DNA of 64,000 nucleotides from Lophium mytilinum. Its lineage: Eukaryota. The stretch covers positions 1,943,334 to 2,007,333 of the forward strand of contig MU004185.1 of assembly GCA_010093605.1 (NCBI GenBank), given 5' to 3'. The notes below the pieces were generated by a model, which saw only the letters and a list, made by a program, of their open reading frames with translations, ran no database searches and was not told where the DNA came from. The translations under genes and the position numbers were made by a program. Of the stretch, positions 30,187-42,249 are shown piece by piece (the first letter of the stretch is position 1; each line of letters starts with the position of its first letter).

Positions 30187-30885
30187 CACTGATTTAAAGC
30201 CTCCGGAACATGACATGCACGGTTTTGTTAAGTTGAAAGGCGTAGGAGCGTCTCACAGTATTTTCGACATGTGCAAAGGTATATTTTAAGTACTCCGATT
30301 TCGAACCTTTGTATTTTTCGCTCAGGGCACTGATTTGAAGTCTCCGGAACTTGACATTCATGGTTTCATCAAATTGAAAGGCGTAGGAGCGTCTCACAGT
30401 ATTTTCGACGTGTGCAAAGGTATAGTATAAATACTCAGATTTAGGACCTATTATCATTCGCTCAAGGCGCTAATTTGAAGCCTCCGGAACTTGACATTCA
30501 TGGTTTCATCAAGTTGAAAGGCGTGGGGGCGTCTTACGCTATTCATCTATAAGTAAGGGTCAACGCACTGATCTGAAGCCTCCGGAACTTGACATTCACG
30601 GTTTTATTAAGTTGAAAGGCGCAGGAGCGTCTTACAGTATTATCGACGTGTGCAAAGACAACGCTTATGTACTCAGATTCAGAGCCTATGCATCAAACGC
30701 CCCAGACTATCTTCCGACCGTTCAAGACACCGATCTGAAGCCTCCAGAACTTGACATTCACGGTTTCATCAAGTTGAAAGGCGTGGGGGCGTCTTACAGT
30801 ATTATCGACGTGTGCAAAGGCAAGGTTCAAGTAGTCAGATTCAGAACCTATGTACTATTCGCCCCCGGGTATCTCCGACCGTAAC
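30187..30885 (+). repeat. Repeat family A, locus 1: five tandem units (about 141, 140, 98, 162, 157 bp)
   Basis: Core CACTGATYTGAAGCCTCCGGAACTTGACATTCAYGGTTTCATCAAGTTGAAAGGCGTRGGRGCGTCTYAC starts at ~30187, 30328, 30468, 30566 and 30728; the array ends GCCCCCGGGTATCTCCGACCGTAAC. Confidence 0.9.
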
Positions 30886-31017: not shown

Positions 31018-31728
31018 CTAGACCTCCCTAATACTATCAAGACGGGAGCCAACGTACGTCTCCATGTATCCTGAATCCCGAGGCTTCGAACCAAGCTTGC
31101 ATCCGTACGATTCCTCGACCTTCTCAGGGGTGCCTCGACCAGGGATTGGAGTGCCCAAACCCGCCACAGACTTCGCGCGATTTCGAGCCATTTCGCGAGC
31201 AGTCTTGAACGACATCTCCATCGGCAGGCTCTCCCCCGAGCATGCCGTCGAGGCCCAGCTTCCCTCCTGGGGGTCCTCAGCCTCCGCAACCGGTGGAGCA
31301 GGCGGCGGGGCAGGGCGGCGCGATTTGAACCTCTCGTTCCATTGCTCAAGATACTGCTGCGCGCGGACCTTGGTTTCGAAAGCCGGTCGCCAAGTGCTCG
31401 TAAGTCGGCTCACTTTCTCGTCGATTTTGGAGGCGTCAACGGTCTGTCGGGAGTGCTCTGGCTTCTTGACAATGAGTACAAGAGGGCGGGCGGGTTTGTC
31501 CGAATTGAGACGTCTGGTATGGCCGGGGCGGGGGAAAGGGTACCAGGGGTGGTCACCGCGCGTGAGGTCCATCGGCTGGTAATTCTCCAGCTTCTGGCGA
31601 AAGAGGGCCTCGCAGCGGGCAATGTGGGCTGCGTGGAGGGCCTCAGCGGTGGGGTCGGGGGGGTGGGGGATAGACCTGCGACTTGTAAGTACCTGGTGTT
31701 TGACGTGAGCTGCCGGAACGACTTACAT
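31018..31728 (-). CDS. Hypothetical protein; start codon probably split by an intron
   Basis: AT|GTAAGT...CAG|G (intron 31726-31676) gives MSIPHPPDPTAEALHAAHIARCEALFRQKLENYQP in frame with ORF 31018-31572. Confidence 0.55.
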
Positions 31729-31862
31729 GGTGACCGAAAGAGAACGCCTGCGTCGAACTGTCGAAACGCCGAATACCGGATACAATCCAATCGATAGGAA
31801 GAGTGAGAGTGGCGGTCCAAGAGCAGCAGCACTATATGCGACTATCTCAGGCCTTGAAAGAA

Positions 31863-32117
31863 GCGTAGATGAGGAGAGATTCGTGAGACGGCGAATGCGC
31901 GCAGAGGATGTAGAAGAGAAGGCAACCAGCGCAGCGAGCGAAGAGAGTATACTGTGGGAATAGTAGAGGTCGTTCCGAGAGCAGAAGCACTGCGTGCGAC
32001 TGATCTAGGCCATGAGGAAGTGTAGACGCAAAGAAATTCGTGAGAGGGCGATTGCGAGCGGAGGATGTAGAAGAGAAGGTCATCAGCGCAGCGAACGAAG
32101 TGAAAATACTGTGGGAG
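31863..32117 (+). repeat. Degenerate direct duplication of about 95 bp
   Basis: ...ATTCGTGAGA.GGCGA.TGCG.GC.GAGGATGTAGAAGAGAAGG...CAGCGCAGCGA.CGAAG.GA..ATACTGTGGGA at ~31863-31958 and ~32020-32117. Confidence 0.85.
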
Positions 32118-33814: not shown

Positions 33815-36800
33815 ATGCCTTCTCTCAAGGATATCAACTGCTCCGTCGAGCTCGCCGGCACGTACGAGAAGCTCCACGAATATGGAGTGTCATACAGCGA
33901 CGGCGTTGTCGAAGCCTTCATTCCGGTCCCGACGATTCCGAAGCCCTTCACTGTACACCTCACCACCTCGGGATATGTTGCACCTGGTCTCGCCATGTTC
34001 GTGTACATAGACGGCGTCTACCAGTGCAACCGTAATCGACAAGGTCTCATCATTCCGGACGGTACTCGACCAATCGACCGTACACTTGTCGACTTTCGTG
34101 TTCGGCAGAAAGAGGAGACGCGATCTTCTGGCAAATTCGTAGGCCGCGAGTGGAGCTTCGAAAAGCTCAATGTTGGTAAGAGGTTACGGTTCGCAGGTCT
34201 ACCAAGTTCTGGTCTAACGCCACCAGTCTCTGCCGACGAGGCTCCCGATATCCCCCCCGATGTTCTCTACGCTGTCGGTACCATCGAGGTTATCGTACTA
34301 CGATGCACTGGAGATGTCTTCGCGGATAGCCCCGACCAGCTCCCACGCCTGTCGAAGCCTGCGCCAGTGGACCCAGCTCCGAAGGGCAAGAAGGCTGTGA
34401 CGACTACGAAGAAAGTACCACCGGCGAAGTCCGACACTTCAAGTAGCATTGGCGGTTTGTTCGGTCTCTTCGATGGCGCCTGCGATACGCCGCCACGCTC
34501 ATATCAATTCCTTGATGGAAGCGGAGATGACTGGGGACCATCTTACGACAGCCGTCGGGGAAGCCGAAGTGGGAAGTCTAGTTCTCACAGCCCACACAGT
34601 CCCCTCGATATTCCCGATACCTACAGCCCAGAGTGGCGGCACGAATCTAACGACGAGCTGAGCGATAAGATCAGTACGTTAGTCTCTAACCTGAGATCGC
34701 GGCATCATTCTCCGGAAGATGCACGGCGCCGCCGCCCAAGCACGCAAGACCAGCACGATGAAGCGAGTTGGGTTGATGAGCGCCCTCATCCGAAGTACTT
34801 TCGTCACTCGCGCCAGACACACGGTATGCGAAAACATGTTCATTTTGGCGCGGATCTGTGTAATTTGATTTCGAGTTCATTAGTTGACAGCCTGCTAACG
34901 ATGACATGCAGCTTACGAACCATCAGATGAAGTCTCTGGGAGCCGGGAGAGCCAACGACGCCTTCGTGCTCGACCTGCTAAAGTGCCAGGCGATTACCCA
35001 TCCTCCGAGAGCGACTCAGCTTCAGTAGTCATCGCTGCATCCCGTCGTAAATCGGCCGCCACCTCCCACAGCTCAAAGTCTCGGGACTCAAGGGGCCGTG
35101 GAACAGCCTCCTCCAACGATCGCCGCTCGAGTGGACACTGGGGTAGTACGAAGAACGGAGGCGGATCGCAAGAGGATCCTTGGGAGATTGATGACGACCA
35201 ACTCTCGCCGAAAGGTCGCCATGCTAGTGGAGGATGGGGTAGTACTAGGAATAGCAAGGACCAGTCGAAGGATGATCCCTGGGACACCGACAAGAACGAC
35301 GACTCGGCCAAAGACCGTCCGGCGAGTGGAAGATGGGGCAACACCAAGAAAAGTAAAGGTGGATCGAAAAATGATCCATGGGAAGCCGACGACGACCAGG
35401 ACTCGTGGGCGTCTGACAGTACCATCAAAGCATCAGCGCAGAAGTCTAGGCGCTCTCGTCGCAAGTCTCGAGATGATCCAGACATGAAGCAGATCATGGA
35501 AGAGTTGAAAGCGCTCAGGAAGCTGACGGAGAAAGATCCGAAATTTAAGGAAGTATCTTGGAGCCCCTCGACATCCAGCCGTACCAGCCGCCGAACGAGC
35601 CGGACTACCACCAAAAAGACCAATGACGACGGTGATGGCTGGGGTGCAGACAAGAGTGAAGATGAGGACAAGAAGGCTAAGGCACAGGATCTGCACTCAA
35701 CCATTCAGCAGCTCATGAAGCAACTCGAAGGGCTCGGCCAGGGCACCGGGAAGAATGCGAAGGGTAAGACAGACGGTTGGGGCACCGAAGAAGCTAATGA
35801 ATCCTGGGGCGAAGCTCGAAAGTCCAAAGACGATGATAATAAATCGGACACGAGCTGGGGCAAAGAGAAGACTTCGGGCTGGGGAGATGATACAGCGAAG
35901 GTAAAAGATGAGAGCTCTGCTGACCAAGGATGGGGATCCGGGAAGACTGCCGACGCTGATGACTCTTGGGGAGACAGCAGCAAGAAAGACAAGAAGAAGA
36001 AAGAAGAAGTTGACCCCTGGGGCAGCGGGGGCGACAACGGCGGCGGTTCCGGGTGGGGAGCTGGAACTGACGCCACCCAGAAGGAGACCGGAGGAGACAC
36101 TGATGGTTGGGGTATCCAAGAAACTCAGCCTGAAGAAGATAAGAATGACGATGGATGGGCTACTGGCGGCGATGATCAAGCGAAAACCGACAACGATGAT
36201 GGCTGGGGTTCAAATGACAACCAGGACAATGCCAATACTGGTTGGGGTTCCACCGAAAATCAAGAGTCGAAAGAGGACGACGCAAACAAAGATGGCGATG
36301 GTTGGGGAGCGGGCGGAAACGATCAAGGTGCTACTACGGGCTGGGGAAATGAAGATGAAAAGACAGGCTCGGCTAACGGAGACAAACCCGAGAGCAACAG
36401 TGGAGGATGGAACAATGATGCCGGTAATACTAGCTGGGGCAACGATGCCGGTAATACTGGCTGGGGCAACGATGCCGGTAATACTGGCTGGGGCAATGAA
36501 GACAATAACGAGAAGGCCGCGTCCCAGGCTGGCGATGCATGGGGCACAGGAGACAACGACAAGAAATCATCGTCGCGAAGGAGTGACTCCAAGTCTACTC
36601 ACAAATCATCCCACCACTCATCGAGCCGTAAACCCTCCTCATACCTCGCACCTCCATCGACGTCCCCTCGGCCGTACTGGTCCACCTGGAACGCCAAGAA
36701 GCCCACCCCTCGTGATGACTTCACCGACACCTACTCCGACTTATCGGCTAGACCGCCCAAGGCAAAGAAAGTGTACCTAGAGCCGGAGGAACCTCTCCCC

Positions 36801-37340
36801 AAGATACCCTCTTCGCACGCAAAGAAGGAGGCTCTAGACCACCAAGTCCGCGCCGGCAAGGGCTCGGAGTACCACCATCGCATTGGCAGACCAGAGTACA
36901 TGGACCCACTCGAGAAGCCCTACGCAGTCTTCCGCTTCAAGTACCGCTCTCGAGACGCGTTGAAGAAGATCCTGGGGAAGGACGTCTTGGATGACGACTT
37001 GGATGAGATGCTGGTAGAGACGACCAATGAGGGAGATCTTCGAGACAAGTTGCTCAACATGAGCAAGGAGGAGATGGTTGAGGCGATGCTAAGAATGCGG
37101 TCTTCTAGTGGTATGACCAAGCAGAGCGGGCGCTCAGAGAAGAAGTCCGAGAGCCACAAGACGCGTTCGCACCATTCTGGGTCACAAAAGGCCGCTTCGG
37201 TGGCCGATTGGGGCAAGAATGATGACAATAAAGACGCCGGGAATGGTGGTGGTTGGGGAGATGACACGCCGGCCGCGACGGGTGGAGGGGGAGGGGGAGA
37301 CTGGAACAGTGGCGCTCCTGCGCCAACTGGTGGCTGGTAA
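33815..37340 (+). CDS. Large protein with an N-terminal beta-rich domain (DUF7918-like) and a long GW/WG-repeat disordered region
   Basis: FTVHLTTSGYVAPGLAMFVYIDG...VGTIEVIVLRC; introns 34176-34226 and 34824-34911 join ORFs 33815 and 34983 in frame; about 25 GW/WG motifs; late conserved-looking block PEYMDPLEKPYAVFRFKYRS. Confidence 0.8.
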
Positions 37341-37486: not shown

Positions 37487-37639
37487 AAATGCACCAAATG
37501 CACCAAATGTAACAAGTGTACCAAATGTAACAAGTGTACCAAATGTAACAAATGTAACAAATGCACCAACTGTAACAAATGCACTAAATGTAAAAAATGC
37601 ACCAAATGTAAAAAATGCACCAAATGCACCAAATGCACC
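37487..37639 (+). repeat. 9-bp minisatellite, about 17 units
   Basis: Variants AAATGCACC, AAATGTAAC, AAGTGTACC and AAATGTAAA in tandem. Confidence 0.95.
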
Positions 37640-38452
37640 ACTCGACGTCCGATACCCTGAATTCGCCCAATACCGTATTATATGTCCAAACACACGGATA
37701 TAGGACTGACCAGGCTTCGGTCTTGCTCGCTTGATACCACTGTCAGGAGTGGCCCAGGTAGTACCTACTCGGCTAGTCAAGAAGCAGCTTGATTTGAACT
37801 GTATTAACTTAACATCATCTGGATGTACCCGGCGAAAAGAAGTGGAATTAAGGACGTAAATTGAAGGGCAGTGACATTGCGTTTGCCTATCACGAAAATA
37901 TTGTGAGACGCTCCTGGGGTCTTGAAGACAGGGACGGGGTGAATGTCAAGTTCCAGGAGGTCCAAATCGCATGCCCGGAGAGTGCCTTACGCTACACTAT
38001 CGAAGCACTTCGAAACCATTTCGTGAAAGACAAACGAACTAAAGCAGTAGCGTCATATTCGACCAGTCAGAAAGATATGATCCCAGATTGCTCACCTTTT
38101 GCTGCGCCACTGCACATGCTTGGCGAGGCCGGGAGGGCTATCCGGGATGTCCATAGCGGCCAAGACTCTTGCGACCTGATAACAATACTACGCCCCATGC
38201 TGCAGCAACTCGGGACGAAAGACAGGAGTGGCCCTCAAAATGGTCCCAAGAGGCACGATCCGCAGTACAATGCGGCACAGTGTGAGATATGGGGGCGGAG
38301 GGCGGAGCAATGCCTTCAGTCTTAAGATCCCCAAACTCACCACTTTGTCACTACCTAGCATGAGCACACCTTCAGAATTACCTCTTTGACACGTTCATTC
38401 TCGCTATCTTGAACGTGCTGCTGTGGCGTGCACCTCTTCGCCTGCATCCAAG

Positions 38453-40492: not shown

Positions 40493-42249
40493 TCAATCCT
40501 CGACACTTACGCCAGCCTTGTCTCCCGCCTTCGCACTCTGATCTTGAGTCTTCGACTCTTTTCCCTGTGCACTCTTCTCGTTAGCTTTTGTGCTGACAGC
40601 AGACTTTTCTCCGGCAGGAGCTTTTGAGGCAGTTGGAGCTTCATCTTCCTCATCGCTCTCCTCCTCAGATGAGTCTGACGAGTCGGATTCCTCCTCGTCC
40701 TCGTCCTCCTCTTCCTCACTACTCTCCTCTTTCGCTTTGACGACTGGCTTTTCACCAGCCTTCGCGCTCAGCTCCGGCTTCTTTGCGGCAGGAATTTTTG
40801 ATGCGGTTGGAGCTTCTTCTTCGCTCTCATCCTCCTCCGACTCGTCAGACTCGTCGGACTCATCCTCTTCACTACTCTCCTCTTTTTTCACGGATGCCAC
40901 TACCTTTTCTTCATGCTCCGGCTTAGGCCCCCTGTACAATGGGCTCAATGTGCTCATCACATCCGGTCCAGGGTCACCCGCCTCCTCGTCAGTCTCATCC
41001 TCACTGCTTTCCTCTTCGTCGCTTTCCTCCTCCTCGCTCTCCTCGTCTTCGTCTTCATCATCATCCTCTTTAGTTGCTTGGCTGTTCTCATTCGCCTTGA
41101 TATCTTCCGGGCTAGCCTCAGTGTTCGAATGGTGCACAGCTACGGGTGCTTCAGAGACTCCACCAGTAGCAATGTCCCTAGGCGGCGCATCGGATTTGTA
41201 CTTGTTGTCCCCAGGCTTAGCTAGGCGTGGTATAGCCTTCATAGTATCACCTGCCTTCTCTCCCTTCTTCCCAGTAAACTTGGCGGTATCCTTCTTTTGA
41301 GCAGATTTGGGGGTATCGTTCTTCTTAGTAGTTGAAGCAGCAGCCTTCTTCTCAGTGGGCTTGGCGGTACCCTTCTTCTCAGCAGACTTGGAGGTATCAG
41401 TCTTCTTAGTTGTCGAAGCAGTAGCCTTCCTCTCAGTAGACTTGGCGGTATCCTTTTTCTCAGCAGATTTGGCGATATCGTTCTTCTTAGTAGTCGAGGC
41501 AGTAGCCTTCTTCTCAGCAGCCTTAACGCCCTCTTTCTTGGTCGCCTCGACGGTAGGGGTCGCGGGCAGCGGCACCGATTTCGGGCTCAAGATACCACGA
41601 GCTGCAGCAGCCTTCGACGGTGTTGTGGGAGTGTTCACCTTCTCCGTCAGCAACGGATTGGTAGTGGCGATGTTGACAGGTATAGGTTTCTTCGCGGCGC
41701 CCTTCGCGGCGGCTTCAGCGCTGAGGACGCGCATGGCGAGGGCAGTGGCGGGATCCTTGTTCTCCTGCTTGGCGGGAGCTTGAGCAGTGGTTTTGGGGGC
41801 AGATGCTGCGCCGGGGACAGGTTTCGGGGTCATGGGAGCCGCAGCGACGACCTTGATGTTGTCGTGCAGTTCGCCGTACTCGTTCCATTCTTCGATCTCC
41901 TCGAGGTCCTAGGACGGACTGTCAGAATAGCTCGTACTAATGATTTGGGACAAAACGTGCTATCCTAGCTCTCTGTAGCCAACGCCTTGATATCATATGA
42001 AGAAGCTGCACTTACAGCAATAACGTAACCCCCCTGCACCAGCATGGGGAGCTTTTTCCCCATCGCCCTCCTCTGAAACAGTTTCCGTGCCAAATCATCT
42101 GTCGCGGTGTCCTTGTACGTGAACGGAATCTTATTCGCCTTCAAGATCGTCTCAATGCGGGATGTTGCAGTAACGATATGTGAGGACCCCGCAGTGAGCG
42201 AGGTAAAGAGGTAGAGGGTGGGGTCATTGTCGAACACCGCTAGCTCCAT
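40493..42249 (-). CDS. Glutaredoxin/SH3BGR-like N-terminal domain plus a Lys-rich and acidic low-complexity tail
   Basis: LYLFTSLTAGSSHIVTATSRIETILKANKIPF...KKLPMLV../DLEEIEEWNEYGEL; one intron; about three 28-aa repeats (AEKKATASTTKKND) and repeated EESSEEEDE blocks. Confidence 0.8.

Follow-up and report, generated by a model that had tools for sequence, protein, structure and literature searches.

Gene structure and tryptophan array

A three-exon gene occupies positions 33815-37340 on the plus strand of the window, by which we mean the whole stretch of DNA analysed (64,000 nucleotides). Two overlapping plus-strand frames are joined by canonical GT-AG introns with CTAAC branch sites. The result is one open frame of 1140 amino acids. 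Intron 1 is backed by homology, because the spliced junction matches two homologues with no gap. Intron 2 is predicted; an alternative GT donor was tried and gave 66 stops. A genome search with the N-terminal part of the protein indicates that the gene is single-copy. The features of the locus are as follows.

33815..34175, plus strand: exon 1, which begins the N-terminal half of DUF7918 (beta strands)
34176..34226, plus strand: intron 1, 51 nt, with GTAAGA donor, CTAAC branch and CAG acceptor; in frame and stop-free
34227..34859, plus strand: exon 2, in which the N-terminal half ends (IEVIVLR strand, to about 34315) and the disordered insert begins
34469..34480, plus strand: FDGA, a short conserved motif in the insert, from the alignment consensus; retained even in the short Aureobasidium insert
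34856..34920, minus strand: probable antisense intron, 65 nt, GT..AG with CTAAT branch; joint in one contig; overlaps sense intron 2
34860..34911, plus strand: predicted intron 2, 52 nt, from splice signals; brings both DUF7918 halves into one frame
34912..37340, plus strand: exon 3, with the Trp array, the C-terminal half of DUF7918, the tail and the stop
35139..36542, plus strand: main Trp array, 28 Trp, 23 adjoining Gly; acidic, G/D/S/N/K-rich and predicted disordered; includes four DPW
36413..36496, plus strand: 27-bp unit (NDAGNTGWG) in 3.1 copies by TRF, 96% matches; units 2 and 3 identical
36669..36689, plus strand: PYWxxW, a conserved motif upstream of the late block, from the alignment consensus
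36780..36971, plus strand: C-terminal half of DUF7918 (profile 158-222 of 228, E 4.6e-9); helices follow to about 37110
37209..37337, plus strand: disordered tail, from the sequence, with four Trp and a C-terminal Trp at its end

The protein contains 38 Trp residues. An earlier sequence-only reading had claimed about 25 GW/WG motifs; we counted 27 Trp that adjoin Gly (14 GWG, 10 WG and three GW). Shuffling the residues of the whole protein 10,000 times gave a mean of 7.9 and a maximum of 19. On the point of GW-domain scoring, which that reading had proposed, the motif count is above chance. Within residues 401-900 there are 23 such motifs against a shuffle mean of 7.7. The median spacing between Trp residues is 16 amino acids. 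The aromatic residues between positions 401 and 880 are 28 W, one F and no Y. The array region is poor in Gln, with 20 among 500 residues. Among 35 six-frame open reading frames of at least 200 amino acids in the window, this gene is the densest in GW/WG (3.21 per 100 amino acids). The runner-up, an amino-acid permease, reaches 1.72. The 27-bp unit, noted earlier as repeated three times, is a recent amplification. The final GGW was also read correctly: the frame closes with TGGW and then the stop.

Further repeats flank the gene. A 9-bp tandem repeat of 17 copies lies at 37487-37640, 150 bases past the stop codon. Upstream, at 30187-30664 and 31816-32116, stretches of 141, 98 and 157 bp are duplicated in tandem, with the copies degenerate.

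The split DUF7918 domain and its homologues

According to the sequence-only reading, the array separates a folded N-terminal domain from a conserved late block. Both parts are predicted to fold, but they are two halves of DUF7918 (PF25534) and not separate units. Exon 3 alone matches the Pfam profile with 37.1 bits against a cut-off of 27. The profile matches in two stretches in all four full-length homologues scanned. In the Atlas, the N-terminal half of the closest named homologue scores 0.94-0.95 for DUF7918 clusters. The best score of the late block is 0.86, again for DUF7918; Duc1, at 0.84, is a lead only. Pfam scans of the window frames and four homologues found only DUF7918 in this family, plus a sub-threshold PP1c_bdg match (E 0.045). 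No PAM2 match was found by Pfam in the window protein, though short motifs can escape Pfam.

We obtained AlphaFold2 models of two homologues: the closest named one (from an 88-sequence alignment) and one with a short insert (72 sequences). In each model, confidence is high in the two DUF7918 halves and nowhere else. For the closest named homologue, pLDDT by block is 81-97 in the N-terminal half and mostly under 50 in the insert. Alignments to small single Ig-like domains span residues about 1-940 in one model and 73-407 in the other. The N-terminal and late halves are thus predicted to form one Ig-like beta-sandwich, which the last strand of the late half is modelled to complete. Since this strand completes the N-terminal sandwich in both models, the Trp array of about 800 amino acids would be a loop inserted into one domain.

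The best PDB fold matches (VIA Z 5.6 and 5.8, about 100 residues, rmsd 3.4-4.0) are generic Ig-like, so no function can be transferred. Foldseek gave no PDB match at E up to 0.001. A PDB sequence search with the family profile returned five matches (best E 0.5), and the best PHROGs match was no better than E 0.11. From the predicted viral structures of BFVD, the two models retrieved largely one common set. At E up to 0.001, one model gave 23 matches and the other 16 (best E 1.3e-7, target TM up to 0.61). These matches are uncharacterised proteins from Marseillevirus, Mimiviridae, Pithovirus, iridoviruses (ORF098), granuloviruses (P22.2), an ascovirus, nimaviruses and a phage, with wsv390-like proteins among them. 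Identity is 8-15%, the large rmsd is driven by the insert, and predicted structures are compared with predicted ones. We take the predicted resemblance to large-DNA-virus proteins as a lead on fold, not on function. Some of the viral proteins alike in fold are fused to RING or SHOCT domains. The accessible part of PMC12656988, on wsv390, holds nothing bearing on mechanism.

Two other DUF7918 loci exist in the genome (G000:C16:962174-962760 and G000:C3:964935-965240), and no Trp array occurs in the frames seen. The second carries a charged, Trp-free insert at about the equivalent place in the domain. Such compact forms have the profile in common with the window protein. The long insert, with a median of 616-660 amino acids between profile positions about 150 and 158, is a feature of the long subfamily.

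Homologue searches returned 13, 224 (best 120 listed), 253 (best 150 listed, 30 looked up by name) and 25 matches. Named members among the matches listed include Glonium, Zopfia, many Pleosporales, Aureobasidium, Hortaea, Diplodia and lichen fungi, together with Xylona, Exophiala, Endocarpon, Trichophyton, Emergomyces and Paecilomyces. We take these to be Dothideomycetes, Eurotiomycetes, Lecanoromycetes and allies. No Sordariomycete or Leotiomycete, Neurospora included, was named among the matches listed. Hence, Neurospora may lack a native orthologue with which to run a QDE-2 or SMS-2 test. The listed matches likewise include no named basidiomycete or fission yeast. Residues 1-150 are 70% identical to the Glonium homologue.

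From 127 homologues we removed six without one DUF7918 half, leaving 121 inserts. These range from about 100 to 1100 amino acids and do not align between homologues. Their medians are 660 amino acids, 21 Trp, eight GW/WG (three expected) and one GWG. The GW/WG excess is individually significant in 64 inserts and not in the other 57, 16 of which are short. The closest named homologue has 37 Trp, only six of them adjoining Gly. A later set held 160 full-length sequences (more than 600 amino acids, both motifs, starting Met; near-duplicates kept). Here, Trp makes up 3.3% of the disordered parts, a total that, like the other total-Trp figures of this set, includes a hydrophobic extension in Aureobasidium. 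Gly adjoins 39% of Trp residues against 18.6% expected, being enriched 2.6-fold before and 2.2-fold after Trp. Basic residues and Pro are depleted; Asn is enriched after Trp, as is Asp (2.2-fold). The median number of Trp in polar context is 18, with at least 10 in 137 of the 160 sequences and a minimum of four. The sequence ends exactly in Trp in 92 of 186 full-length homologues.

The family counts, flanks and C-terminal ends indicate that many spaced Trp residues and a terminal Trp are under selection, with Gly favoured and not required. We conclude that the long DUF7918 protein is real, conserved and uncharacterised in ascomycetes, and that the window copy is the G-rich extreme of its family. 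The suggestion of an uncharacterised scaffold of filamentous fungi therefore fits a conserved, disordered Trp-motif family. Whether orthologues keep the repeats has a divided answer: they keep spaced Trp in G/D/N/T context, but not the GWG arrays.

Sixteen proteins, 15 from Aureobasidium, have short inserts. These have no polar Trp in the insert and 4-11 in the tail; one has a tandem amplification of its own. We considered, and rejected, wholesale relocation of the array into Aureobasidium tails (15-27 Trp), much of which is the hydrophobic extension. This C-terminal extension occurs in some Aureobasidium models, is absent from the short-insert homologue ending in Trp, and is probably gene-model read-through.

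Candidate partners of the array

We are fairly confident that the window protein is a multivalent Trp-motif scaffold. This is supported by the 27 GW/WG motifs against 7.9 in shuffles, and by Trp and a Gly-flank bias kept in homologues although the inserts do not align. Briefly, the predicted sandwich would clamp a long disordered loop at its two ends, with a shorter tail left free. Loop and tail would show 20-30 Trp, about 16 amino acids apart, in small or acidic contexts. If these work as GW182-type motifs do, each could enter a surface Trp pocket of a partner. Many weak sites would make binding avid and may favour granule formation. The likeliest partner would be the PIWI domain of an Argonaute, a candidate to which we give slightly less than an even chance. 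The sandwich would then link Argonaute to an effector or a location, and the protein would be the functional counterpart of GW182, Tas3 or Cryptococcus Gwo1/Gwc1.

Argonautes are available. We found 16 Piwi matches in the genome, spread over several loci. Three long open frames are among them, one of which is a QDE-2 orthologue (E 3e-105). There are also two Dicer_dimer matches and six RdRP matches at four loci. Contig G000:C1 has Piwi matches at 1345-2004, 829218-839602, 942505-943086, 2120465-2120791 and 2188517-2189567. That at 1345-2004 is interrupted by 15 TAG/TAA stops, a pattern expected from repeat-induced point mutation. The co-occurrence with Argonaute and Dicer that had been proposed as a check is therefore present, RdRPs included, in the protein's own genome. 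To our knowledge, RNAi genes are near-universal in these fungi, so co-occurrence has little power here.

Several results weaken the Argonaute reading: the GWG median of one, the 57 inserts without excess, the lack of an Ago_hook match and half-kept pocket positions. The scarcity of Gly-adjoining Trp in the closest named homologue, the absence of RNAi genes from the scanned window frames and the binding of Trp motifs to CNOT9 without Argonaute count against it too. With E up to 1 allowed, none of the window frames matched Pfam Ago_hook (PF10427); a genome search with this profile was blank, as was its control. At the positions that we take to form the human AGO2 Trp pocket, the QDE-2 orthologue keeps about half. 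It retains L650, D619, P661 and R688, and has W in place of F653, K in place of both I651 and Y654, and A in place of F659. The accessible parts of PMC11923369 and PMC5084781, on Trp-pocket residues, hold nothing bearing on mechanism.

Self-assembly is a different possibility. The protein would form a condensate or polymer in which Trp residues, the C-terminal one included, stick to each other or to its own DUF7918, with no dedicated outside partner. The regular sticker-spacer pattern, and conservation of Trp number and not position, are consistent with this, and the free C-terminal Trp of so many homologues suggests a pocket that reads the terminus. However, the near-absence of F and Y from the array would be easier to reconcile with a shaped pocket than with generic aromatic stickers. 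Furthermore, the array Trp are not confidently placed on the domain in either model, and the compact paralogues lack such an array in the frames seen. We regard self-assembly as rather unlikely. An mRNA-decay adaptor independent of Argonaute is a shade less probable. Here, the motifs would bind Caf40/CNOT9 or Pan3 pockets, as in tristetraprolin, and the sandwich would pick the target. Motifs of TTP and TNRC6 dock into the Trp pockets of CNOT9, and Caf40 is a fungal subunit (PMC10157403, accessible part). Many homologue motifs lack Gly (SWD, DWN, TWD), and 60% of Trp in the 160 homologues are flanked by G, S or T against 46% expected. Yet the enriched neighbour is Gly and not Ser (1.05-fold before and 0.62-fold after Trp), and no RNA-binding domain was detected by our scans.

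A role outside RNA, as an adaptor in membrane traffic or autophagy, is less probable again. It would use DPW, acidic-Trp or Atg8-type motifs, which, like gamma-ear motifs, were counted by their general definitions. The four DPW of the window protein and the Asp enrichment after Trp point this way, as do weak Foldseek matches with PDE6D/RhoGDI-type sandwiches, none of them better than E 0.008. Against it, the window protein contains no Atg8-type WxxL/I/V, gamma-ear or WxxF motif. Across the 160 homologues, WxxL/I/V is below expectation (289 against 352), and DPW and NPW account for 43 of 3897 Trp. Neutral low-complexity drift in a tolerant DUF7918 loop we judge very unlikely. The loop does accept unrelated inserts, as the paralogue's charged one illustrates; its size varies widely and the 27-bp repeat is recent. 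But at least five polar Trp are retained in 158 of the 160 homologues, across several classes, and the flank bias and terminal Trp are consistent.

Known Argonaute adaptors offer a frame for the scaffold reading. S. pombe Tas3 and Cryptococcus Gwo1 and Gwc1 are fungal GW/WG proteins tied to Argonaute, likened here by description and not by sequence. In C. deuterogattii, GWC1 and GWO1 were lost or truncated together with AGO1 (PMC4778953, accessible part). The accessible part of PMC10402008, on GW definitions and Gwo1, holds nothing bearing on mechanism. As described in the accessible parts of PMC4615383 and PMC10157403, Trp-motif regions of GW182 bind PIWI and also PAN3 and CCR4-NOT; the latter source adds that Trp motifs bind CNOT9 without Argonaute. 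GW182 has fast-evolving Trp regions beside conserved globular parts, and its hallmarks are a central UBA-like domain together with an RRM in C-proximal position (PMC4615383, accessible part). It is reported as animal-only in the parts of PMC6155107 and PMC4615383 accessible to us. The window protein and GW182/TNRC6 have in common long, disordered, fast-evolving Trp-motif regions by conserved globular parts. However, no UBA or RRM was matched by Pfam in the window frames and four homologues, and the models show no such domains. There is no Ago_hook match either, and the array is predicted to loop out of a split domain. The window protein does not belong to GW182, although it may function in a similar way.

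We found no description of DUF7918 function in the open-access literature. A GW-type Argonaute partner in filamentous ascomycetes was not found there either, though an orthologue may be listed by gene number in subscription papers or supplements. This family is one conserved, single-copy candidate for how Argonautes of filamentous ascomycetes reach decay enzymes or granules. It also offers a first way into the function of DUF7918, and of a fold that seems to occur in large DNA viruses too.

Probable antisense transcript and neighbourhood

The antisense evidence comes from one contig in one public run, which we guessed to be RNA. The contig skips 34856-34920, keeps sense intron 1 and continues through the upstream region. 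Such minus-strand signals accompany only three of 3460 possible 65-nt stretches in the gene. The 5' part of the gene is probably covered by an antisense transcript that is spliced, a strain deletion being the alternative. Judged by the contig's length, the transcript may reach about 30915, past a minus-strand open reading frame at 31018-31722. No antisense open reading frame of at least 60 amino acids crosses the joint. In the same run no joint was seen at either sense intron, which, in contigs, does not amount to absence. Our guess is that the sense gene was off in that sample, or is specific to the sexual stage. Neurospora SAD-2, a scaffold of meiotic silencing, is compared here by its role. 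Expression of SAD-2 is confined to the sexual phase (0 against 38.5 FPKM; PMC8482848, accessible part). On SAD-2 features, the accessible parts of PMC5555490 and bioRxiv 2024.12.09.627484 hold nothing bearing on mechanism.

A wider proposal, which we consider unlikely as a whole, would join these strands. Long DUF7918 proteins would be the missing GW182-like Argonaute adaptor of many filamentous ascomycetes. Their hook loop would be closed, clamped by a split beta-sandwich in a topology not described for such scaffolds, and the fold would be one that large DNA viruses have too. The compact forms of fungi and those of viruses could then compete for this interaction or mimic it. The spliced antisense RNA would hold the gene off in vegetative growth, and the adaptor would serve genome defence in the sexual stage.

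No RNAi gene occurs among the 22 window frames scanned with Pfam. The neighbours are unrelated, matching DUF7730, BRO1-like, permease, NLR and ELMO families. A Lys/Glu/Ala-rich frame of 471 amino acids with no Pfam match lies at 40493-41908 on the minus strand. It contains a 27-bp repeat of its own, in 9.7 copies at 41263-41524.
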